DNA from: an uncultured Chloroflexia bacterium
GTDB taxonomy: Bacteria > Chloroflexota > Anaerolineae > Anaerolineales > UBA4823
Length of the DNA: 64,000 bases
Direction of reading: 5' to 3'
Assembly: GCA_963797475.1 (NCBI GenBank)
Contig: CAWCPR010000001.1
Span: 53,284-117,283, forward strand
A model generated the notes under the pieces. That model saw only the letters and a list, made by a program, of their open reading frames with translations. It was not told the DNA's origin and did not search any database. Shown one piece after another: positions 9,470 to 21,430 of this stretch. The first letter of the stretch is position 1, and every line of letters starts with the position of its first letter. Made by a program: the position numbers and the translations under genes.

Positions 9470-9725
9470 TTGTGGGCGACGGGCGCAAGAGCGACGGGCA
9501 CAAGGCCCTATGCTACCGGGACGATGGGACGCCGACGGGCACATGTAGCATAGCCCCTTGTGGGCGACGGACACATGTAGCATAGCCCCTGTGGGCGTTA
9601 GAGCCCCTTGTGGGCGACGGACACATGTAGCAAAGCCCCTTGTGGGCGACGGACACATGTAGCATAGCCCCTTGTGGGCGACGGACACAAGCGACGGGCA
9701 CAAGGCCCTATGCTACGATACTGGT
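9470..9725. repeat. REP-like palindromic repeat array (about four tandem 32-bp units TTGTGGGCGACGGACACATGTAGCATAGCCCC flanked by inverted GCGACGGGCACAAGGCCCTATGCTAC copies)
   Basis: Direct reading: contiguous units with no spacers, and the flanking copies are in inverted orientation. Confidence 0.8.
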
Positions 9726-12700
9726 GCGAAACCGGCGCTGTTGATTTCTTCGCTGGTCCAATAGAAGGCTTCCTCCAGCTCCGGGTTCCAATTCTCGCGC
9801 TGGCGGCGCAGGCGGTTGAGCGAATCCAGGTCGCCGATACGCGCCAGAGCCTCGATGGCTTTGCGCCGCAGGTAGGTGATATCCGTTACAACCGGGTTGG
9901 CGCCTAAAACGACGCCGTGCAAATCCCCGGCGGCAATCTGCTCGAACAGCTCTTTATAGCTGCGCCGGTTGAGCCAGCCCAAGGACTGGATGGCGTGCGC
10001 CTTGACGCCGATATCGCGAAACTCGTACAGGCAGCGATCCAGGAAATGGGCAGTGGTCGCATCTTGCGCCCGCACCTTGCCGATCAGGTAGGCCAGGCGC
10101 TCGTACCAGCGCGCCCGGCGGCGCCAGGCGCGCGCGTCGATGTTTAGCGTTTTGGCGACCGTCTCATCCAATAAGGGCAGGATCGCCCGGGCAACCACCT
10201 GGGCCGGGTCGACCAGGGCCAGGGCGTCCGTCACCGCCCAGCTCGTCTGCGACGGGGTATCCGGGTCCAGGAAGACCGAGACGAGGCAATCCACGGCCTC
10301 GTCGTTGTTGATCTCGCCCAGGGCAAAGGCAGCGATGGCCTGCGAGCCGGCTGCTTCCGAGCGCAGCCGCTTGCCCAGAGAAGCGGCGTCACGCACGCAC
10401 CACAATTTCAGCACTCCAGCCAGCGTGGGACTGGCCTTCTGGATCTCCCGCTCGTAGCGCGGCATCATCCTCTGCAGGGCGTTGGCGGCAGCCATGCGCA
10501 CACTGCTGTATTCAAAAGTCGGCAATCCCTGCCAGTCGGTGCGCACGCGCTCGAACGCCGCCCGGGCCAGGGCCGGGATGGTCTGAGGCCGCTGCAACTG
10601 GCCCAGCACCAGGGCGGCGCGCGCCCGGCGGGCCTCGCGCGGCTCGTTCGCCGTATCCAACTGGCGCACCAGGACGTCGAACACCTGGTTTTCCAGTTGC
10701 GGGTCGATCTGGCGGCCGCGGTTTTCCAGCAGGCAGCGCGCCAGCAGGTACAACTGCTCGCTCTGGGCCAGGTTCACCCCGTAGACCATCATGCGCAGCA
10801 GGCCGTTCGGGTTGCGCAGCATGCGGCTGGTCAAAACCAGCACGTCGCCCCACCAGCGCAGCCGGGACAGGCGGCCCAGCGAGGCGGTGATGTCGTCCAG
10901 GACCCGGCTGCGATCCGAACGCTGGACGATCTCGCGGGCGCAGCAGTAGGCTTGCAAAGCCGGGTAATTGAAGCGCAGCGAATCGGCCCCCACGCGGGCC
11001 AACAGGTTGCACTGCACGAGCTGGTCAAAAAGGTCCTCCAGGCTGTATTCGCGGTTGCCGCGCACGGAGGCCATGATCTCAAAGGCGTTTCGCACCGGCA
11101 GGACCAGGGTGCGATTCGAGTGCATCTCCCAGGCCAGGGCATACACACTGCGCCCGCTGCGCGAGCGCATGCCGTGCAGCGGCGAAACCTCCGCCAGGGC
11201 GTCATCCACCCAGTGCTCGAGCACGTCCCGGCGGGACTGCGGGTAGCTGCCCTCCTGCGCCTGGCGCAGCATGCCCAACAGCGACCAGGTGGTGGAAGCC
11301 AGGTCGAACAACTGCCGGGCAGCCAGGACGCGGTACAGCCTAGGCCCGGCCGGGTCGCTCAACCCCTGCAGGAACATCTCGACCTTGCGCTGGGACAGCG
11401 GCTGGATGACCAGCAAATCCGTGGCGGCCCGAAAATTACGCCGCGAGTATTCTTCCAGGTCCACCGCCAGGATGAACTCGTGGCGGGAGCCGCGGGCGAG
11501 GGCCTGGATCTCCTCCCAGGCGTCCTGGCGCTGGTCGTCGGGCAGCTCATCGCCGCCATCCAGGATCAGGCGCAGGATCGGCCCCTGATCCCCTTCCAAC
11601 AGCTCGTCAAAATCCGCCGGGGTTAAAGCCGGCCAGAATTCTTGCAGGTTTTGCAAGGTCAGCCCTTCCAGGCGGCTGCGGGTGCCCGGCTGGACCGACT
11701 GCAAGCCGCGCAAATCCACGTAAACCGGGATGATCAACTGGCGGACGCCCGGCTGGAGCGAGTTTTCGGCGGAGATGAGCACCAGCCGGCGCATCTGGGT
11801 GGATTTGGACGAACCGGGGATGCCGGCGACGACGATGAAGGCCCCTTGCGGCTTGCCGCGCGAGCCGGGCTCTTGGCGGCGCGCGGCGAAAATTTGCAGG
11901 GCGATATCGAGCAGGTCCATCGCCGGCAGCGGGTCCTGCCCGACAAGCCGCAGCCTGTCCAGGCTCAGGTCGCCGGCCAGGTGGGCCACTTCGATCGGGA
12001 TCGGCAGGTAGCCGCGCTTCTCCATATCGCTGCGCTGGCGGTTGCGGATGGCCTGCAAAGCCAGCCGGGCCGGGTCGGCGGCGAAAAGCTGCCCGGTTTT
12101 CAGGCGCATGAACAGCACCGGGATGGACCAATCCGCGCCCCGGTCGTTGAAAAGCAGCAGGCGCGCCTGGTTCAAAGCCCGGTCCACCTGGCCGTGCTCG
12201 AGCAGGTGGCCGTAAAAATCGGCGTTAAGCTGGCGGGCCACGTCCACCGGCACGAGGTCCTGCATGGCTACCACCGCAGCGACCCCGCATCTCACCAGGC
12301 TGGGGCCCAGGCCGAGAAAACCATGCGCCTCGCCTGGGTCGCGGCGGGCGGATTCACAGGCGGTCAGGAAGACCAGCCTGGGCAGCGGATCGGCCTGGGC
12401 CAGCTTTTCAACGATCTCGCTGTCGCGGGCGGCGTGGAATTCGCCATTCTCACTCTCCAGGTACAGGGCGGCTGTGCCGGGGGCATTCGAGTCGGGGCGG
12501 CGGTAAGCGCCGTGGCCGATGTAATGCAGGACATGGCAGCCCTGCATGCCGCGCAGCAGGTTATCCAGGCTGGTCGGTCCGGGCAGGATGTGGTAGCCGT
12601 CCTGCTCCAACTGGCCGCGCAGGGCCGGGTCGAGACCGCTGCGGCCGGGCATCACCGAGACTTCCACCAGGTCCTGGCTGGCCAGGTCGCCAAGCGCCTG

Positions 12701-13237
12701 GTGCAGCGCCTGCACCTGGTCGTTCACATCCACCGGGCTGAGGCCGGCCGGCAGGTCGCTGGGGTTGGAAAGGGCCGCCAGGATGCGCACCGGTCGCTCG
12801 GTCAGCGGCGGCGTTTCGGCGATCTCCAGGCCGGTGTAGCGCGAGAAAGGGGTCAGGCCGGAAGTCGCCAGGGACAATTCCTGGCCTTTAAACGAGTGGT
12901 ACAGGCGCTCCCAATTGAACGCCTGCAGCTCGCTGGCGCTGTCGTCGATCCAAAGCTGGACGCGCAGCACGCCCTCCGCCTGGGCAGCGGCCTGGGCGGC
13001 CGCCCGCCCGGCGACCCGCTCGTAGGCGCGCAGGATCGGGCCGGCGAACAAAGCCTTATCCAGGGTTAAGCCGTAGGCCTGGGCGTCCAGTTGAGCGGCC
13101 AGCAGCGCTTTCGGATCGATCTGGAGCTGGCCGCCGGAAAAATAGCTGCCATCATCCAGCTCGGCGTCCACGGCGTACGCCTTGCTGTCCTGGGAAGAGC
13201 GGGTGATATGGATGAGGATCTTGGCCGGCTCGCTCAT
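9713..13237 (-). CDS. CHAT (caspase-like) peptidase - NACHT/STAND P-loop NTPase - HEAT-repeat protein
   Basis: N-terminal CHAT dyad HYIGHGAY...FLTACESAR. Walker A VVAGIPGSSKST and Walker B-like ILRLILDGGDE. C-terminal PBS-lyase/HEAT-like repeats. Its ATG lies 1 nt after the stop of the upstream 111-aa gene. Confidence 0.85.
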   Translation of the reverse strand: MSEPAKILIHITRSSQDSKAYAVDAELDDGSYFSGGQLQIDPKALLAAQLDAQAYGLTLDKALFAGPILRAYERVAGRAAAQAAAQAEGVLRVQLWIDDSASELQAFNWERLYHSFKGQELSLATSGLTPFSRYTGLEIAETPPLTERPVRILAALSNPSDLPAGLSPVDVNDQVQALHQALGDLASQDLVEVSVMPGRSGLDPALRGQLEQDGYHILPGPTSLDNLLRGMQGCHVLHYIGHGAYRRPDSNAPGTAALYLESENGEFHAARDSEIVEKLAQADPLPRLVFLTACESARRDPGEAHGFLGLGPSLVRCGVAAVVAMQDLVPVDVARQLNADFYGHLLEHGQVDRALNQARLLLFNDRGADWSIPVLFMRLKTGQLFAADPARLALQAIRNRQRSDMEKRGYLPIPIEVAHLAGDLSLDRLRLVGQDPLPAMDLLDIALQIFAARRQEPGSRGKPQGAFIVVAGIPGSSKSTQMRRLVLISAENSLQPGVRQLIIPVYVDLRGLQSVQPGTRSRLEGLTLQNLQEFWPALTPADFDELLEGDQGPILRLILDGGDELPDDQRQDAWEEIQALARGSRHEFILAVDLEEYSRRNFRAATDLLVIQPLSQRKVEMFLQGLSDPAGPRLYRVLAARQLFDLASTTWSLLGMLRQAQEGSYPQSRRDVLEHWVDDALAEVSPLHGMRSRSGRSVYALAWEMHSNRTLVLPVRNAFEIMASVRGNREYSLEDLFDQLVQCNLLARVGADSLRFNYPALQAYCCAREIVQRSDRSRVLDDITASLGRLSRLRWWGDVLVLTSRMLRNPNGLLRMMVYGVNLAQSEQLYLLARCLLENRGRQIDPQLENQVFDVLVRQLDTANEPREARRARAALVLGQLQRPQTIPALARAAFERVRTDWQGLPTFEYSSVRMAAANALQRMMPRYEREIQKASPTLAGVLKLWCVRDAASLGKRLRSEAAGSQAIAAFALGEINNDEAVDCLVSVFLDPDTPSQTSWAVTDALALVDPAQVVARAILPLLDETVAKTLNIDARAWRRRARWYERLAYLIGKVRAQDATTAHFLDRCLYEFRDIGVKAHAIQSLGWLNRRSYKELFEQIAAGDLHGVVLGANPVVTDITYLRRKAIEALARIGDLDSLNRLRRQRENWNPELEEAFYWTSEEINSAGFAPVS

Positions 13238-13238
13238 C

Positions 13239-13574
13239 TCACTTGATGAAAGATTTGAGCATCCCTGTCAGGGCGTCCAAAATGCGGGCGCGGTATTCGA
13301 TGGCGGTCGAAACGTTGCGCTGGTGCAGTTCGAGCAAATCGGTGTCGACTGCCAGGGCGCCGGTCTCGCTAACACGCACTGGCAGGATGGCCTGGCTGTC
13401 GCCATCCAGCTTGACCACCGTGCGGGCCAGGGGCTTGGCCTGGGCGAAGTCCACATCCCCGTCCGCCCCGATCTTCACGTAGCTCGTTTCCACAGACATG
13501 GTGGCGATGTTATCCACGTAAGCGGCCGCTTTCTCGGCCGCGCTGCGGATGGAAGTTTCCAAATCAGTTGCCAT
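13239..13574 (-). CDS. Small protein (111 aa) sharing a domain with the C-terminus of the upstream caspase-like peptidase
   Basis: It aligns by eye to the last roughly 90 aa of the 689-aa protein (KPLARTVVKLDGDSQAILP versus AKLRAFTMIKIDGDTQVVVP). It is tightly coupled to the CHAT gene. Confidence 0.6.
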   Translation of the reverse strand: MATDLETSIRSAAEKAAAYVDNIATMSVETSYVKIGADGDVDFAQAKPLARTVVKLDGDSQAILPVRVSETGALAVDTDLLELHQRNVSTAIEYRARILDALTGMLKSFIK

Positions 13575-13652
13575 TTCCTATCTCCCTTGGTTGGTATCGA
13601 TCTAAAATCGGTTTGCATGGCCCGCCGGCCAGGGGCTGGCGGGCCGGGTCCT

Positions 13653-14417
13653 TTACGATCCTTCCGGATGGGCTAATTCTGCGCGCACCTGGTTGATAAA
13701 GCTCAAAGCCGCCGGCAGGGCCAGGAGCGGCCCGGCGGGAGTCGCCAGCAGGGTCGAAAGCTTCAGCGCGCCGGCGGCGACCACGGCAAACGTGCGCAGC
13801 AGGGCGGCGCGGGAATCCAGGGCCAGCTTCAGCGTGCGCTCGTGCAGGGCGGACTGCCCGTCGGCCGGTTGGATGTACCAGGCCGTGTCCATGTCGCCTG
13901 TCCAGCTCACCGACGTACGCGCCCAAAGCCGGCCTTGCACGCGGGTCTCCACCCAGGCGTAGTGGGTCACGATTTGCTCCAGGCGCTGCATGAACTCTTT
14001 GAACTGGGCGACAGCCTGTCCCCATTTGTCCGAAACCTGGTCCAGGGGGCCAAAGCTGAACGAGTCCCAGGACTGCCCCGGCGCAAAGCTCAACATCTGC
14101 CCGCTCTCCTGGGCGTAGGCCAGCAGCGCCAGGGTCTCGCTTTCAGGCGGCGGAAGCTCCTCACCTGGCTCGCCAGCCGCGAAAGACAGCCCGCTGGCCT
14201 GGCGCAGCCTCAGGCGTTCCAGGCGTTCTTCGCTAATTTCCAGGGCCTGCTCGCCGGCCTGCAGGCTGGCCTGCGCCTGTTGGAAGGCCGCAAGCGCCTG
14301 TCCCGGTTCGGCCGGCAGCTCGCTGCGCCAGACGGTGACATCCGCCGGGATGGCTGCCGGCGGGGATCCGGGCGCGAGGTCGAACGAAATCGCTGCCGGG
14401 TCTGCCTGGGTCGACAA
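13653..14417 (-). CDS. Hypothetical protein (254 aa) with hydrophobic C-terminal segment
   Basis: Only coherent ORF in the interval; the opposite-strand 308-aa ORF is Arg-rich junk. The C-terminal stretch TFAVVAAGALKLSTLLATPAGPLLALPAALSFI is hydrophobic. Confidence 0.5.
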   Translation of the reverse strand: MSTQADPAAISFDLAPGSPPAAIPADVTVWRSELPAEPGQALAAFQQAQASLQAGEQALEISEERLERLRLRQASGLSFAAGEPGEELPPPESETLALLAYAQESGQMLSFAPGQSWDSFSFGPLDQVSDKWGQAVAQFKEFMQRLEQIVTHYAWVETRVQGRLWARTSVSWTGDMDTAWYIQPADGQSALHERTLKLALDSRAALLRTFAVVAAGALKLSTLLATPAGPLLALPAALSFINQVRAELAHPEGS

Positions 14418-14512
14418 CCTGCCAGGGGCCAGCCAAACCCGAGCCGGGCTGGGCCTGGCTTTCGCCGATCAGCACGAAGGCCGCCGAAGAGCGGCTGGAC
14501 CCGGCGTTCACC

Positions 14513-16582
14513 TCAGAGCACCTTGAGCGCCTGCAGCAGCCCGGTGGCTGCCGAAGCGGCCGCTTTCATCATCTCGGTCCGGTTGGCCTGCGCCTGCCGG
14601 ACCATATCCAGGTGGATGGACCACAAAGCCTGGTCGATCTCGCCGGAGTCTTCCGGCACGACCACCTGGGTATCGCCATCGATCTTGATCATGGTGAAGG
14701 CGCGCAGTTTGGCGCCAGGAGGGATGTCGTTGCCAGTGCCGACCGCGGCCATGTCCTCGACAACGTAGGTGGAAACCTGCAAGGTGGCGGCGTCGTCGAC
14801 CGCCTTGGCCAGGGCTTTGCCCAGGTTCTCGGCGAACTGCTGGACGGCGTTGGTCAGGCGGGCGCGCGTGTCCGAAAGGCTGTCCAGCAGGCCAAAATCC
14901 ACACCGGCGGCGTCGACGACCGCCGTTGCCGTCAGGGTCAGACTTGCGGCGGCCCCAACGGAGGCGGCTTGAGCGCCGGCTGCGGGGGCGGGCGCAGCTT
15001 CTGCCGCAGGGCCGCCCTCCTGGCTCAAGGCGCTGGGAGTTTTCGGTTCCGCGGAAGCGCCGGGGGATACGGCGGCGGGCGACTGCACCGCGCTCGTCAC
15101 GAAGACCGGGCGCTCGAGGGGCTTTTCGCCGCCGGCGACCACCGGCAGGCGCACGGCCGGGTCGCCGATAATCGTGTAGCCGCGGGCGTCGTTGTTGGCC
15201 GTCCACTTGCCGGCCAGCTCGTACGGATCGACCTTCTTGCCAAATTCCACGTCTTCCAGATCGTCGCTCAGCACAGTCGAAAGCTCGGCGTAGCGATTGT
15301 TAAAATACTCGATCGCTGCCCCAACCGGTTTGCCGGTGAACAGGCTTAACAAAGCGCTCTCGAATACGGTGGTCTGTTTCCCGGCGTCGGGCCACAAGAA
15401 AGAATAACCCCAGGCGCGCTCCACATGGCCGACCACCGCCAGGGCCCCGCCGCGCGGGTGGCCGAGCAGCTTCCTGGGCAGTCGAGCCAAAAAGGGCGCT
15501 TTGGCGATGGGCTTGGGCTGCTTGAAAGCCTGCCTGGAGAACTCGTCGATGAGCGGCGTGCCGGCCCCGTAGCAGGCGAAGAAAAAGGCGATCAGCCCCA
15601 ACAGGCCGGCATCGGAGGCCAGGTCTTCCCCGGTGAAGTAGAAATCCTGCGGGACGGCGCCTTTGCCCTGCCAGGCCGCCGGACCGGGCCAATCCTGGCA
15701 GAGCAGCGCCCCCTGGCGCACGGTCTGGTCCTGGCTGTCCAATGAGAAGCTCATCCCGTGGCTGGCGCTGAAGAGCAAGGCCGGGGTCTGGTCGCCGCCC
15801 AGCAGGCGGCTGAGCTGGGCCTTGGTGGCCTGGTCGCGCAGGACGGCGTCGAACTCCCAGCCCTTGAGATTTTCTTTTTCTTGATCCTTATCCTTGAATG
15901 TGGTGTACAGGGGCTCGACCAGGTTGTCGGCGCTCAGTTGGGTGGCTTTATCGCCCGGGTTGGAAACGCCGAAAAACGAAGCCCGGCGAGGCAGCTTCAG
16001 CTTACCGGATTCGGCCGTCGCCACGCTGTGGGCGTAGCTGGCGTATTCCCCTGGCGTGTCGAAATGGATGCGGCCGACCGCGTATTGCACGTCGAGCTGG
16101 CTTTGAAAGCGGTAGGGGATCTCGGCCGGGCTGCCGGCGACCAGCAGGTAATAGGGTATATTTTCAGGATCCGCCGGCCCGGGCCCTGCGCCGTGACGGG
16201 CCAGGAAATCTGTCTTGGATTCGTCCGGCCGGTAGCCGTCCGGGCCCTCATAGATGCGGAAATGGTCGCCGGCCTGCTCGCGGCGCAGGTCGATCAGCTC
16301 CTTCAACGCATCCTTAATTGCCGGGTCCGCATTGGCCGGGAAGATCACGCCCCAGCCGGACTCGGCCAGGTTGTACGGGTCCACCCCTTCCTTGACCCCA
16401 AAGTCTGTTTCGGTGGAGCGCTTGTGGCGGAATTTGAGCTCGCTGAGATTCTCGGGCGTGCCTTCGCCCTCGATGAACTTAGCAAGCTGCTCGCCCGTCA
16501 AAGGCGGCAGGGAATATTCGCCAGTTTCGCCATCGATGCCGTTGAAGAAGAGAAGTTCTTGTTCGGCGGGTGCATCGGTCAT
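14513..16582 (-). CDS. Caspase-like (clan CD) cysteine peptidase with low-complexity linker and C-terminal small domain
   Basis: His then Cys catalytic order: ALLFSASHGMSF ... IAFFFACYGAGT. An Ala/Pro-rich linker follows. The C-terminal approximately 90 aa are homologous to the 111-aa neighbour. Confidence 0.7.
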   Translation of the reverse strand: MTDAPAEQELLFFNGIDGETGEYSLPPLTGEQLAKFIEGEGTPENLSELKFRHKRSTETDFGVKEGVDPYNLAESGWGVIFPANADPAIKDALKELIDLRREQAGDHFRIYEGPDGYRPDESKTDFLARHGAGPGPADPENIPYYLLVAGSPAEIPYRFQSQLDVQYAVGRIHFDTPGEYASYAHSVATAESGKLKLPRRASFFGVSNPGDKATQLSADNLVEPLYTTFKDKDQEKENLKGWEFDAVLRDQATKAQLSRLLGGDQTPALLFSASHGMSFSLDSQDQTVRQGALLCQDWPGPAAWQGKGAVPQDFYFTGEDLASDAGLLGLIAFFFACYGAGTPLIDEFSRQAFKQPKPIAKAPFLARLPRKLLGHPRGGALAVVGHVERAWGYSFLWPDAGKQTTVFESALLSLFTGKPVGAAIEYFNNRYAELSTVLSDDLEDVEFGKKVDPYELAGKWTANNDARGYTIIGDPAVRLPVVAGGEKPLERPVFVTSAVQSPAAVSPGASAEPKTPSALSQEGGPAAEAAPAPAAGAQAASVGAAASLTLTATAVVDAAGVDFGLLDSLSDTRARLTNAVQQFAENLGKALAKAVDDAATLQVSTYVVEDMAAVGTGNDIPPGAKLRAFTMIKIDGDTQVVVPEDSGEIDQALWSIHLDMVRQAQANRTEMMKAAASAATGLLQALKVL

Positions 16583-16734: not shown

Positions 16735-17010
16735 AATATGAGGCGGGCGCCCTCACCCCTGCCCCTGCCCTCACCCCTGCCCCTCTCCCGCGTGCGGGAG
16801 AGGGAAGATCTCGATGTCACAGGTCACCTGACTGACGCGACTCCCTTTCTCGCCCTCACCGTGCGGGAGAGGGGAATCGACAGGACTCCTTCGATGTCAC
16901 AGGTCACCTGATTGAACGCGACTCCCTTTCTCGCCCTCACCGCGTGCGGGAGAGGGGAATCCGCCTGGCAAGGACTCCTTCGATGTCACAGGTCACCTGG
17001 CCGGACGCAA
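16735..17010. repeat. Tandem array of three repeats of about 75-78 bp, each with GC-rich hairpin (CTCTCCCGCGTGCGGGAGAG) and GATGTCACAGGTCACCTG box
   Basis: Direct reading: three near-identical consecutive units in the region between the 16582 gene start and the 17231 gene end. Confidence 0.8.
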
Positions 17011-17230
17011 CTCCCCTTCTCGCCCAAAATTTGGGAGAGAAGGGGCTGGGGGATGTGAGGGCCAGGGCGTAAGTCGCAGCCGCGACGAAGAGCGCCCTCT
17101 GGGCGTCCATGCCTCTCCCCGAGCAGGGACCAAAGCCTGATGTTGAACGCCGCCATTAATCACAAGGCCAGGAGCTGCAAGTGCTTGAGCCTGCAGCTCC
17201 TGATTCTTCCGGCGTTACAGAAAAAACGGC

Positions 17231-20200
17231 TTACTGGGCGACCAACGTCACATTCTTCGGATTGTAATTCACAGTATACCCCTGCCCATGCCCATCGATT
17301 GTGGCAAACTGACCGGCGCGTGCGGCAAAGGTCATCACGATAAAGCTGTCGCCAAGGGTAGGAACATAACCGCCGGCCAACGTGACGTCCAGCGCGCCGT
17401 CTAAGGTTGCATTTCCAACGATGGCGAACTGATCATACTCTGTAATCGGAGCCTGGCCGCCAATTTTTACATGCAGAACGCCGCTGGCGGTCTGGGTGAA
17501 ATCCCCGCCAAAACGCAACTGTCCCGACTGGACGTCCACGCTGCCGCTGTTGACGAAGGCCGGATTTACGCGGGTCTCGCCGCTGCCGCCCGATTTTGTG
17601 AGGGAGCCGTGGTTCTGGAAAGATGCCCCGCCCGTACTGATATAGATGAAGTCATCGCCCTGGAAGTCGAAGGTCGCTCCCGCCAGGTTGGCGATGACTG
17701 CCGCATGGTAGGCGGTGAGCGAGCCGTCCAGGAGAACTGCCGCCCCGGCGTTCTCCAGGCTGCGACCATCCAGGTAGCGCCCGTAGCTGCCGCTGAAGGT
17801 CAGGCCGCCGTTGGCCCGCGTGGTCCCAATGCCGCTCATGGTGCCGTAGTTCCAGGTCAGCATGCCTGCCACATCCACGTCCCCGTTTCCCGTCAGCGTC
17901 CCGCCGCTCATCGTCAGGGCGCTGGTGCCGGCGGTCAGGCCAGCGCTGACCGAGAGCGTGCCGCCAGCCAGGGTGGTGTTGGCTGCAGTGTAAGTGCCGC
18001 TCAGGGTGAGCGTGCCGGAGCTGAGGCGCACATTGAGACCAGAGAGGCTGCCGCTCAAGGTGTGCGACCCGCCGCCGATCTCCAGGGTTCCGGCGCCCTG
18101 GAACGAGCCGGCGTCCATACCGCCGCCTCGCAAGGTGAGCGTGCCAGCCTGCACGTCGACGACCCCGCTGTTGTTGAGCGGGATGTAGATGCTCGCCGAC
18201 CCGCTGCCAGCCGATTTGCTGAGCGTCCCCTGGTTGTCGAACGTGGCGCCTCCCGTGCTGGAGTAGATGAAGTCATCGCCCTGGAAGTCGAAGGTGGCTC
18301 CCGCCAGGTTGGCGATGACTGCCGCATGGTAGGCGGTGAGCGAGCCGTCCAGGAGGGCTGCCGTCCCGGCGTTCTCCAGGCTGCGGCCGTCCAGGTAGCG
18401 CCCGTAGCTGCCGCTGAAGGTCAGGCCGCCGTTGGCCCGCGTGGTCCCAATGCCGCTCATGGTGCCGTAGTTCCAGGTCAGCAAGCCTGCCACATCCACA
18501 TCCCCGTTCCCCGTCAGCGTCCCGCCGCTCATCGTCAGGGCGCCGGTGCCGGCGGTCAGGCCAGCGCTGACCGAGAACGTGCCGCCGGCCAGGGTGGTGT
18601 TGGTTGCAGTGTACGTGCCGCTCAGGGTGAGTGTGCCGGAGCTGAGGCGCACATTGAGACCAGAGAGGCTGCCGCTCAGGGTGTGCGACCCGCCGCCGAT
18701 CTCCAGCGTGCCGGCGCCCTGGAACGAGCCGGCGTCCACGCCGCCGCCTCGCAAGGTGAGCGTGCCAGCCTGCACGTCGACTACGCCGCTGTTGTTGAGC
18801 GGGACGTAGATGCTCGCCGACCCGCTGCCAGCCGATTTGCTGAGCGTCCCCTGGTTGTCGAACGTGGCGCCTCCCGTGCTGGAGTAGATGAAGTCATCGC
18901 CCTGGAAGTCGAAGGTGGCTCCCGCCAGGTTGGCGATGACTGCCGCATGGTAGGCCGTGAGCGAGCCGTCCAGGAAGACTGCCGCCCCGGCGTTCTCCAG
19001 GCTGCGGCCGTCCAGATAGCGCCCGTAGCTGCCGCTGAAGGTCAGGCCGCCGTTGGCCCGCGTGGTCCCTATGCCGCTCATCGTGCCGTTGTTCCAGGTC
19101 AGCATGCCTGCCACGGCCACGTCCCCATTCCCCGCCAGCGTCCCGCCGCTCATCGTCAGGGTGCCGGTCAATACGGAGGCCTGCCCGATATCCAACGTCC
19201 CGCCGGAAAGTACGATCGCTGCCTCGCTTTTCAAGCTGAGAACGGCATCCGCGCCACGGGAATGGACGATCGTGACAGCTCCGGGAACATCGATAATCAC
19301 ATTCTGAGTGGGGCCGGGTATGAGATTGGGTTTCCAGTTGAAAGGATCGTGCCAGGAGGTGCCATCGCCTTCGCCGTCCCAATAGACGGTGCCGTAGCCG
19401 GGCTGTTCGTGGAAGAAATCGAAAAAGAGGAACACAAAATCCCCGGTTGCCGGGCCGACCCCCTCTATTATGCGGGTTTTATTGTTCGCCACGTCATAGG
19501 CGACGGCTGTAAAGGGCTCCCCAGCGGGGATGAGAGGCACAAAGAAGTAGCCGCCCGGGTCTGCTACTCCGCTGAAGGGAATGGGTGAACCGGCCGAGAA
19601 TACCTTAATGATCACCGGGCTGGCTGCTTGCGGAGCGCGAGCGGCGCCGCCTCCACCTCCGCCCACGTTGCCGCACCCATTGCCGCCTGGAGGCGGCGCG
19701 GAGCCCATACCGGTCAGCCCGGAGCCGCCGCCCGTCTGGGAAGGCGAGCAAACAAGCGCCGGTGTTGGCGGCGGGCATTCAGCATCGCCGAGAAACCAGA
19801 TTTCTATCATCCCAAAAACTATCGTCAATCCGGCGGCGCAAAGGCCGCCAGCAAGCGGGCTAAAAATTATTGCACAGCCCAGGGACGTCAGGGTTATCCC
19901 TACCAGAACGAGCGAACGGATAATTTTAAGCTGGGTCTTCGTAAAACAGCCGGCCAAAAGGCGTGAAATCGAGTCCGCTTCCAGTTGGTTTGCCTGCGCC
20001 AGGATGCCCGAATTTTCGATGAGCGTGGCCGCGTCGATCAAAAATTGCTGAACCGCGGGCGATGGGTCACTGCTGAGCTGTTCAAAAATAGAACCGGTCT
20101 CGGTAAACTCAATAATCAATTGAGCCAACTTGTCATTGGTACCGACAGAGGTCTGGATCCCATTCAGAGTGGCCAACGATTGGGTGAAGAAGTCATGGAT

Positions 20201-21430
20201 AATGTCACTGGCTGGCCTGTTGATTGGGGTTGGCTCTTCCACCGTGATCGCGATTGACTGTGTTGTTGCGCCCGTGCTTTCATTGCGAAAGGAAAGCGTT
20301 GCAGGCCCGGCTGGCAATATCGGGAGGATGGCAGAGAGCGTTTGGGAAGAGCTTTGCCCGTCTAAATCCGGGCTTAGCAGGGCCGGCAATTCAATTTTTG
20401 TGCCATCTACCGACGAAAGAAAAACGGCCACATTCCCAGACAGCGAATAGGGGTTAAAGCCCGTGGTTTCTACCTCGATGCTCGTGCCGGGCGGACCCGA
20501 GATACCGGCCTGAACGCCAGCCACAGAAAAGCTCTGGCTGGAGACGACCGCCGAGCCCTTTAACAAAACCTGCGGGATGGGGTCAGAAATGACGTCGTTG
20601 TTCGGCGCAACGCTGGCGCTGTTGACGACCACGATTTCATCCACACCGTCGCCATCCGCGTCCGGCATAATCTGGTAGTTGACCACCACCTGGCCCGGCT
20701 GGACTCGGTTGCCAAAATCGGCTGAAGCTACCCGGTAGGGCAGGGAAATCGGAGCCGGGCTTTGAATACTTTGCGCTCCCAGGAAAGTGACTCCCATCGC
20801 ATCCCAATTGATGCCGTTTTGCGCGGTCACTTCTTGCTGGGTCAGCTCATCCACCGAGACGGACGTTCCGTCCGGCAGCGCGCCTGGAGGGATCGTGATG
20901 ATGCTGCCGATCTCGCTGCCCAAGACACCTCCCTGCGAGCCGATGACCCCGCTCGATGGGGGATTGGGCAGTACATTGACGGTGATGCTTTTGCTGGTTT
21001 GTCCGCTGGGTCCGCTGGCGACGGCTGTCAGGGTTAAGTTCCCCGCCGGGAACGCGCTGGCATCGAAAAAGACTTGATAGCCATCGCCCGGGGTGTTGTC
21101 GACGCCCAAGGAGGTCGTGGCTGCGCTGAACGCCACGCGGGTCACGGTCTTCGGATCACGCGGCTGGGCAGCCAGGTACAGCATGCCGCTGACGGTCCAG
21201 CCATCGGATGGGCTGGTAATTTCAAAGTCTGGAGGCCCAGGCGGTGTGACAATGATCGGCAAGAAAATGGTATTGGGCGCTTCAATGCCAGTTTGCGCCA
21301 GACGGTTCTGACCTTGCAAACGGCTGGCGGCCTGAAGTGTTTGAGCCTGCACAGCCAGGGGCTGGAAGGAGAGAGCAAATACTAAACAGGCCATTAAAAT
21401 CCGAGATGTCGTTTGGTGTTTCATATGCAT
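17231..21430 (-). CDS. Giant surface/secreted protein with signal peptide, Ig-like N-terminal region, internal hydrophobic/Gly-rich segment and autotransporter-type (PATR) beta-helix repeats
   Basis: Signal peptide MKHQTTSRILMACLVFALSFQPLAVQAQ. Three near-identical units of about 165 aa (...GSYGRYLDGRSLENAG...TLTLRGGG...) with G.L.L.G repeat texture. A TM-like stretch LVLVGITLTSLGCAIIFSPLAGGLCAAGL and a Gly run GGGGGGAARAP. Confidence 0.85.
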   Translation of the reverse strand: MHMKHQTTSRILMACLVFALSFQPLAVQAQTLQAASRLQGQNRLAQTGIEAPNTIFLPIIVTPPGPPDFEITSPSDGWTVSGMLYLAAQPRDPKTVTRVAFSAATTSLGVDNTPGDGYQVFFDASAFPAGNLTLTAVASGPSGQTSKSITVNVLPNPPSSGVIGSQGGVLGSEIGSIITIPPGALPDGTSVSVDELTQQEVTAQNGINWDAMGVTFLGAQSIQSPAPISLPYRVASADFGNRVQPGQVVVNYQIMPDADGDGVDEIVVVNSASVAPNNDVISDPIPQVLLKGSAVVSSQSFSVAGVQAGISGPPGTSIEVETTGFNPYSLSGNVAVFLSSVDGTKIELPALLSPDLDGQSSSQTLSAILPILPAGPATLSFRNESTGATTQSIAITVEEPTPINRPASDIIHDFFTQSLATLNGIQTSVGTNDKLAQLIIEFTETGSIFEQLSSDPSPAVQQFLIDAATLIENSGILAQANQLEADSISRLLAGCFTKTQLKIIRSLVLVGITLTSLGCAIIFSPLAGGLCAAGLTIVFGMIEIWFLGDAECPPPTPALVCSPSQTGGGSGLTGMGSAPPPGGNGCGNVGGGGGGAARAPQAASPVIIKVFSAGSPIPFSGVADPGGYFFVPLIPAGEPFTAVAYDVANNKTRIIEGVGPATGDFVFLFFDFFHEQPGYGTVYWDGEGDGTSWHDPFNWKPNLIPGPTQNVIIDVPGAVTIVHSRGADAVLSLKSEAAIVLSGGTLDIGQASVLTGTLTMSGGTLAGNGDVAVAGMLTWNNGTMSGIGTTRANGGLTFSGSYGRYLDGRSLENAGAAVFLDGSLTAYHAAVIANLAGATFDFQGDDFIYSSTGGATFDNQGTLSKSAGSGSASIYVPLNNSGVVDVQAGTLTLRGGGVDAGSFQGAGTLEIGGGSHTLSGSLSGLNVRLSSGTLTLSGTYTATNTTLAGGTFSVSAGLTAGTGALTMSGGTLTGNGDVDVAGLLTWNYGTMSGIGTTRANGGLTFSGSYGRYLDGRSLENAGTAALLDGSLTAYHAAVIANLAGATFDFQGDDFIYSSTGGATFDNQGTLSKSAGSGSASIYIPLNNSGVVDVQAGTLTLRGGGMDAGSFQGAGTLEIGGGSHTLSGSLSGLNVRLSSGTLTLSGTYTAANTTLAGGTLSVSAGLTAGTSALTMSGGTLTGNGDVDVAGMLTWNYGTMSGIGTTRANGGLTFSGSYGRYLDGRSLENAGAAVLLDGSLTAYHAAVIANLAGATFDFQGDDFIYISTGGASFQNHGSLTKSGGSGETRVNPAFVNSGSVDVQSGQLRFGGDFTQTASGVLHVKIGGQAPITEYDQFAIVGNATLDGALDVTLAGGYVPTLGDSFIVMTFAARAGQFATIDGHGQGYTVNYNPKNVTLVAQ

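Follow-up and report, generated by a model that had tools for sequence, protein, structure and literature searches.

In multicellular bacteria, systems that combine a caspase-like protease with a STAND NTPase are viewed as prokaryotic counterparts of apoptosome and inflammasome signalling, and to our knowledge the physical wiring of their parts is known for very few of them. We analysed a candidate locus of this kind in a 64,000-nucleotide stretch of DNA from an uncultured Chloroflexia bacterium (assembly GCA_963797475.1, contig CAWCPR010000001.1, positions 53,284 to 117,283; this whole stretch is called the window), in which a 689-aa caspase-like peptidase, a 254-aa protein and a 111-aa protein are encoded next to a CHAT-protease/STAND-NTPase gene. 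The C-terminus of the peptidase (domain A), the 111-aa protein (B) and the C-terminal half of the 254-aa protein (the middle protein) are three ancient paralogues of one domain, which appears, from sequence searches and a predicted model, to be undescribed and to lack a convincing solved structural relative. The most parsimonious interpretation is that this domain serves as a protein-protein interface. We put at about 50% the probability that it is a cassette-specific hetero-oligomerisation module, which would link a second peptidase of caspase fold, along with its partners, to a CHAT-STAND sensor in a protease cascade.

Caspase/STAND conflict systems of multicellular bacteria are a known kind (PMC7159879, PMC8195603, PMC13581612), and two of these papers (Kaur, Burroughs, Iyer & Aravind, eLife 2020, PMC7159879; eLife 2021, PMC8195603) deal with EAD1-11 (effector-associated domains, EADs) and with the Death-like domains found in bacterial STAND/NTPase conflict systems. 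These domains resemble the one studied here in being small and non-catalytic and in occurring in at least two adjacent genes of a caspase/STAND system, in their enrichment in filamentous or multicellular bacteria, and in that the copies in adjacent genes are presumed to pair. Neither literature searches nor selective reading of the Aravind-group papers (PMC7159879, PMC8195603) and of a 2026 STAND survey turned up a description of the present cassette, which is absence of evidence only.

Two further known arrangements are close. CARD-type caspase cascades share with this locus and its relatives an nSTAND1-WD40 or CHAT-NTPase-repeat sensor beside a separate caspase-fold peptidase with an intact His/Cys dyad, and a dedicated small domain that could recruit the second peptidase; here, however, the adaptor has a fold with no relation to CARD, the second peptidase resembles C25/gingipain and is not a caspase proper, and the cascade is inferred from gene order only. 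Trypco1 and Trypco2 of VMAP/STAND systems are likewise small, functionally uncharacterised proteins found together with a peptidase in conflict systems built around an NTPase. They differ in that the present domain has no Pfam match, that the neighbouring peptidases are CHAT and C25-like (caspase-fold) instead of trypsin-fold, and that here the small protein and one domain of the peptidase are paralogues.

Three paralogous domain copies in one operon

An initial annotation, made by eye, had matched the 111-aa protein to the last roughly 90 residues of the peptidase and taken the two as a pair. The similarity is upheld by three kinds of comparison. BLASTP finds a single significant match, between residues 20-108 of the 111-aa protein and residues 595-685 of the 689-aa protein (97 aa, 31% identity, 49% positives, E=3e-7); the Smith-Waterman score against the peptidase is 89, as compared to a mean of 30.6 (standard deviation 5.7, maximum 60) for 2000 shuffles (z=10.2); and hhalign aligns a profile of 29 stand-alone homologues with the peptidase C-terminus at 97.5% (E=7.9e-12, 95 columns). 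The K.DGD.Q...P core proposed at that time is, in the form K(L/I)DGD(S/T)..P, the most conserved motif of the family. Eight residues are invariant in both the A and the B clade (V28, T30, G58, D59, P65, H84, V88 and R95 in 111-aa numbering), and they map to the VET strand, to the K-L-D-G-D turn, and to the H...R of the last helix. The C-terminal location was correct, but the domain is longer than proposed (~561-689), including a first helix and a conserved DFG motif; fused and stand-alone copies do lie in one operon, but the pair is a trio, the copy in the 254-aa protein having been missed although this protein falls within the annotated interval. The features of the operon are as follows (window positions).

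14513-16582, minus strand: gene of the 689-aa peptidase (open reading frame list)
13653-14417, minus strand: gene of the 254-aa middle protein (open reading frame list)
13239-13574, minus strand: gene of the 111-aa stand-alone protein B, the B-type copy (open reading frame list)
9713-13237, minus strand: gene of a 1174-aa protein with CHAT, NACHT-like STAND NTPase and HEAT repeats (open reading frame and Pfam)
15128-16582, minus strand: predicted peptidase core, clan CD, caspase/gingipain fold (weak Pfam Peptidase_C25, conserved motifs)
14903-15127, minus strand: low-complexity linker rich in Ala, Pro and Ser, peptidase residues ~486-560 (sequence)
14516-14902, minus strand: A-type domain copy, peptidase residues 561-689 (BLASTP, hhalign, motif)
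14885-14902, minus strand: VDFGLLD motif at the start of domain A (conserved in homologues)
13755-14060, minus strand: divergent third domain copy, residues ~120-221 of the 254-aa protein (hhalign, hidden Markov model, AlphaFold2 topology)
13656-13754, minus strand: hydrophobic C-terminal helix of the 254-aa protein
15758-15760, minus strand: catalytic His275 of the peptidase, in SHG
15572-15574, minus strand: catalytic Cys337 of the peptidase, in FACYGAG

The third copy is the most divergent, and several comparisons agree on it. The middle-protein family aligns with the B family in hhalign at 90.6% (E=1.3e-6), and the trimmed middle-protein region aligns with the combined A+B profile at 96.3% (E=1.6e-9, 97 columns). 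When the A+B hidden Markov model (HMM) was run without filters over 4336 open reading frames (ORFs) of 46 loci, the sub-threshold matches were essentially only 23 middle-protein orthologues, all in the same region and in register. The copy keeps the V.T, G-D, H and R signature (WVETRV..ARTSVSWTGD..LHERTLKLALDSR), and all three copies share the pattern V-x-T ... [KR]-x-D-G-D ... P ... H ... R. The AlphaFold2 (AF2) model of the 254-aa protein (mean predicted local distance difference test, pLDDT, 83.6; predicted template modelling score, pTM, 0.77) has a helix at 125-151, strands at 154-160, 163-170 and 176-180, and a helix at 188-221, the same element order as in B. For the 111-aa protein, modelled from the family alignment (pLDDT 84.8, pTM 0.68), the helices are 2-23 and 78-110, and the strands between them are 25-32, 47-55, 60-63, 66-68 and 74-76. 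The predicted fold is thus alpha/beta (helix, beta-meander, helix) and not Death-like. The copies differ in charge: the 111-aa protein is acidic (isoelectric point, pI, 4.9), as are all orthologues of A (mean net charge -7.3) and B (-4.8), and the middle-protein copy is neutral to basic (mean +0.8; 62% with pI above 7).

Library searches were otherwise empty. Scans of the cassette proteins against Pfam, NCBIfam, PADLOC and PHROGs gave no match for the domain or the 254-aa protein; searches of PDB sequences with the domain, by single sequence and by profile, returned nothing; the best Foldseek match of the domain model in the PDB had only E=0.3; and no relatives were found in viral contigs.

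The four genes lie head to tail on the minus strand, with gaps of 95, 78 and 1 nt in the order peptidase, middle protein, B and CHAT-NACHT-HEAT, and therefore form one operon, in which the CHAT-NACHT-HEAT start codon is 1 nt past the stop codon of the 111-aa gene. In Pfam the 1174-aa protein matches CHAT (2e-22) and HEAT_2 (1.6e-12), and NACHT weakly (E=0.007); we presume that it is the sensor/initiator partner of the cassette. Going by these assignments, the locus has the predicted layout of a STAND/NLR-type conflict system, with a STAND NTPase, a repeat sensor and an adjacent protease in one operon. We note that the P-loop of the CHAT-NACHT protein (residues ~468-477, window ~11800-11830) is AGIPGSSKST, where Lys is preceded by Ser and not, as usual, by Gly; this NTPase may be divergent.

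The peptidase assignment is weak in Pfam (Peptidase_C25, 22.6 bits against a cut-off of 23, profile positions 288-374 only), and 17 of 36 long homologues match C25 at E<=0.01; no relative of the 689-aa peptidase was found among PDB sequences. The protein has the clan CD arrangement of His followed by Cys in H-G and A-C-x-G motifs after hydrophobic strands. SHG and FACxGAG are kept in the family consensus, and the window protein has SHG (His275) and FACYGAG (Cys337), so that the predicted His/Cys dyad is intact. An extra C25-like paralogue without domain A stands beside the canonical gene in five loci (L005 2267-4486, L013 506-2245, L020 5321-7108, L021 310-5838 and L033 4227-5756).

A short motif recurs around two of the three copies. 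A [DE][YF]G[LIV][LF]D motif directly upstream of domain A is conserved in the peptidase homologues, and the 254-aa protein has three motifs of the form hydrophobic-S-[FY]-[G/A/D] (F12, F79 and F122; 14376-14390, 14175-14189 and 14046-14060), which sit in low-confidence linkers of the AF2 model and are conserved in 37 orthologues. The third of them precedes the middle-protein domain as DFG precedes domain A; in the general form hydrophobic-S/D-[FY]-[G/A/D]-hydrophobic, the motif also occurs once before domain A (14885-14902), and it is absent from the 111-aa protein B. Its role may be that of a cleavage site or docking peptide, or it may supply a strand to a partner. The 254-aa protein ends in a conserved hydrophobic helix, PGGALLALPAAWKF. 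Like bacterial gasdermin operons (a gasdermin with a caspase-like or CHAT protease, often fused to NLR-like repeats), the cassette has a protein of ~250 aa beside caspase-like proteases and STAND-type sensors, and with its exposed linkers and hydrophobic C-terminal helix this protein could be a protease-activated effector. It is, however, mostly helical, carries a copy of the A/B domain and has no profile match (Pfam, PADLOC) or structural match to gasdermin, and we rejected it as a gasdermin.

The cassette across genomes and its neighbours

The locus set consists of 42 loci with a B gene, found by a scan of one genome per species with an alignment of B only, three metagenomic loci and the window. 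The scanned loci are mostly from Chloroflexota (Anaerolineae, Chloroflexia, Thermomicrobiales, Ardenticatenales), with three from Acidobacteriota and one from a myxobacterium, and the cassette-bearing loci are for the most part from filamentous Chloroflexota, with some from Acidobacteriota. The peptidase (with A), the middle protein and B are found in the same order and on one strand in 37 of 45 loci, and the cassette spans classes of Chloroflexota as well as Acidobacteriota. One locus (L028) has peptidase-A and B with no middle protein detected, two of the 45 are cut at a contig end, and five (L026, L030, L036, L037 and L042) have an orphan B without peptidase or middle protein.

The alternation between fused and stand-alone forms, which was first seen within the window operon, is also found across lineages: among 38 cassettes, domain A is fused to the peptidase in ~25 and lies in a separate or frame-shifted ORF in ~13. 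This variation argues for A working with the peptidase as a module. The separate ORFs begin within the low-complexity linker, and split or overlapping linker ORFs are found in L001 (7950-8003), L003, L005, L011, L017, L019, L029, L031, L032, L034, L035 and L043, with 4-nt start/stop overlaps in L019 and L032. In L001 the frame of the separate domain A remains open upstream through the conserved DFG motif, which suggests a broken fusion. The frame breaks in the linker may reflect genuine gene fission, assembly errors in low-complexity GC-rich DNA, or recoding.

CHAT-protease/STAND-NTPase genes are found in most loci with enough flank, so the conflict-system context assumed for the window, with a CHAT protease and a STAND NTPase adjacent, holds for most related loci too. 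In many of them an nSTAND1-WD40 gene (~1300-1530 aa) is directly upstream on the same strand, preceded by a CHAT-SIR2_2 gene (~690 aa); examples with both are L006-L010, L018, L022, L029, L035, L041 and L043. A CHAT-NTPase-TPR/HEAT gene follows B directly, as in the window, in L005, L020, L023 and L033, and the NTPases of such related CHAT genes are AAA16/NACHT with TPR/HEAT repeats. The CHAT/STAND partner genes of L001 and L003 are present in convergent orientation, and three of the orphan B genes (L026, L036, L042) are near CHAT or nSTAND1-WD40 genes. What these neighbours have in common is CHAT, and the NTPase clade and the repeat type vary.

Two loci have unusual gene content. In L042 (9116-10962; Paraliomyxa miuraensis) the orphan B comes directly after a 279-aa ORF with no Pfam match and is 2.7 kb downstream of a 1672-aa CHAT-nSTAND1-WD40 gene, and neither the C25-like peptidase nor the middle protein was detected there; the same small protein may have a different partner set in this locus. 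In L005 (7270-9207) a 645-aa ORF with no Pfam match stands between the domain-A ORF and the middle-protein gene, in this locus only.

The family is sizeable. An exhaustive profile search gave 691 cluster representatives (50% identity) at E<=1e-3, 428 of them at E<=1e-10, and the 111-aa protein has 77 close stand-alone homologues of ~110 aa each. Architectures were inspected in the best 150 of the 691 representatives, and among these the domain is either stand-alone (~110 aa) or at the extreme C-terminus of longer proteins, all of which belong to one C25-like peptidase family, except P0087. HMMs for the A and B types separate all matches cleanly: B-type copies are stand-alone in 152 of 162 cases, and A-type copies are fused to the peptidase or consist of linker plus domain.

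The exception, P0087 (2675 aa; L046 3896-11923), has, in this order, Trypsin_2, nSTAND1, another P-loop, four B-like copies in tandem (residues 992-1328) and WD40 repeats. L046 has a 484-aa CHAT gene after it and no peptidase/middle-protein cassette. The four copies in one protein indicate that copies of the domain can function side by side and link the domain to STAND proteins. We note that they are apparently inserted between the P-loop GMPGIGKT (~931) and the downstream NTPase motifs VFCLDAY and LLITTSH, in the region of residues 928-1400.

Around the window operon, two tandem repeats were seen in intergenic DNA: one downstream of and close to the CHAT-NACHT gene (9533-9689; a 32-bp unit, about five copies), the other upstream of the gene for the peptidase (16811-17025; an 89-bp unit, 2.5 copies). 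Further upstream, a minus-strand gene (17231-21430) encodes a protein of 1399 aa whose N-terminus resembles a signal sequence and which contains, internally, three nearly identical repeats of ~230 aa (GGTLTGNGDVDVAG.LTWNYGTMSGIGTTRANGGLTFSG...); the protein looks secreted or surface-located and is not related to the cassette.

A candidate assembly module

The analysis establishes that the three copies are homologous and fall into distinct, conserved clades, that the gene order is conserved, that CHAT/STAND genes are associated with the cassette, and that the peptidase has an intact His/Cys dyad. Long-lived, non-interchangeable paralogues within one operon are typical of hetero-oligomer subunits. 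Here diverged and non-interchangeable paralogues are kept in one operon, alternate between fused and split forms, and are rarely found elsewhere, which fits subunits of a hetero-oligomer, and we therefore take the domain to be the cassette's own assembly module. We also count in favour of this reading the charge contrast between the acidic A and B and the neutral to basic middle-protein copy, the tandem copies in P0087, the CHAT neighbours, with the B and CHAT genes 1 nt apart in the window, and the linker motifs.

From this we infer a possible course of events, from physical interaction and stoichiometry to which protease cuts what and the cellular outcome. The three domain copies would bind each other and join the peptidase, the 254-aa protein and B in one hetero-oligomeric complex, and this complex would stay the same downstream of CHAT-protease/STAND-NTPase (NLR/Apaf-1-like) sensors that vary. 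Once such a sensor is triggered, its CHAT protease would act on the complex, probably at the exposed S-[FY]-G motifs, those in the linkers of the 254-aa protein and the one just upstream of domain A. This action would free or activate the second peptidase, the 254-aa protein, or both, and the outcome would be a caspase-like cascade with two tiers and an adaptor fold of its own.

Several points weigh against this proposal. The invariant residues are polar (T, D, H, R), and a ligand-binding or catalytic site is possible instead of an interface. The usual cleavage sites of clan-CD peptidases follow D, R/K or N, so that S-[FY]-G is no obvious site, and these motifs could be docking peptides or merely parts of the fold. 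The orphan B genes in five loci and the domain in L046, which has no cassette, indicate that B has some function independent of A. Lastly, L011 and L017 have full-length cassettes and no CHAT gene within 10 kb.

A more specific version, which we offer tentatively and consider rather doubtful, is that the cassette is an 'executioner' arm of which the CHAT-STAND protein is the initiator, with the three copies assembled in a pseudo-symmetric hetero-oligomer that is released by cleavage at S-[FY]-G.

Alternative roles and meaning for the family

The adaptor reading of the initial annotation fares well in part: the domain is real, it is both fused and stand-alone, and it occurs in a CHAT/STAND context. 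In its classical form, homotypic contacts would recruit an effector to the sensor NTPase, as in CARD-CARD or EAD-EAD pairs, and the fused and free copies in a CHAT/STAND neighbourhood, the four copies on the STAND protein P0087, and the translational coupling of B to the CHAT-NACHT gene of the window all fit such an arrangement. The analogy with Death-like domains and EADs is not supported, in fold, in profiles or in partners. The predicted fold is alpha/beta, whereas those domains are all-alpha helical bundles. Pfam models of EAD, Death, CARD, bacterial Death-like and Trypco families gave no match to the window proteins at E<=0.1 and none consistent among 29 members at E<=10, the EAD, Death and Trypco models being unmatched even at that threshold. 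The CHAT/STAND ORFs of the 45 loci have no detectable copy of the domain in an HMM search with filters off. The promiscuity expected of an EAD is lacking too: in the best 150 of 691 representatives the domain joins a single effector family and is not on the sensor NTPase (P0087 excepted), and in the cassette it serves one peptidase family and two dedicated small proteins, whereas EADs join many effectors. Its copies are three diverged paralogues, whereas EAD copies are near-identical. We therefore regard a classical EAD/Death-type adaptor as unlikely.

A second possibility is that B and the middle-protein copy are inhibitors or pseudo-substrates, which mimic domain A and restrain the peptidase, like an antitoxin or a prodomain, until they are degraded or displaced. 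Mimicry by paralogues inside one operon would account for the trio, a peptidase that keeps its catalytic dyad needs restraint, and B resembles many antitoxin or immunity proteins in being small and acidic and in coming last in gene order. On the other hand, orphan B genes exist without a peptidase, and the strong divergence of the A and B clades is unexpected for mimicry. The idea also overlaps with the hetero-oligomer and is hardly exclusive of it; as an explanation in its own right we find it improbable.

Less probable still is a domain that binds a small molecule or signal, or is catalytic, with the invariant T, D, H and R as its site and, for example, a NAD-derived product of a neighbouring SIR2 as its ligand. 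Polar residues are invariant in all three paralogue families, and CHAT-SIR2_2 genes lie alongside many cassettes, but the window system and several others have no SIR2 or other generator of a nucleotide signal, a cassette with three copies of a sensor would be unusual, and structural comparison matched no ligand-binding fold.

A YbaB/EbfC-like, nucleoid-associated DNA-binding dimer is very unlikely. YbaB dimerises through helix-sheet-helix elements, and the domain shares with YbaB/EbfC structures (PDB 1pug, 1ybx, 3f42) the element order of a long helix, a small antiparallel sheet and a long helix. It has no sequence similarity to them, however, A and B are strongly acidic in all orthologues and not basic, and the genomic context is another one; with a weak Z, no match to Pfam YbaB (PF02575) and nothing found by Foldseek, membership was rejected. 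The domain lacks every defining feature of the Death/EAD, Trypco and YbaB families that was tested. Chance or compositional similarity without a true shared domain, which an identity of only 31% in a GC-rich, Ala-rich genome might suggest, is excluded by the shuffles (z=10.2), the profile-level E-value of 8e-12 and the same invariant motifs in 691 family representatives.

The 691 representatives are a sizeable family with no annotation or assigned structure, and its only visible role is that the proteins of a conserved three-gene accessory cassette share it. If the copies form an interface, work to reconstitute a bacterial protease cascade would have a concrete, testable starting point in four linker motifs, four invariant polar residues and three small domains, and the 'hypothetical proteins' of ~110 aa and ~250 aa in Chloroflexota could be annotated as markers of a CHAT-STAND accessory module. 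Adaptor-based wiring would then have evolved more than once, on different folds. Should the executioner version also be true, the cassette would represent an adaptor system that is functionally equivalent to, and evolutionarily independent of, the Death-fold (CARD/DD) adaptors of animal apoptosis.

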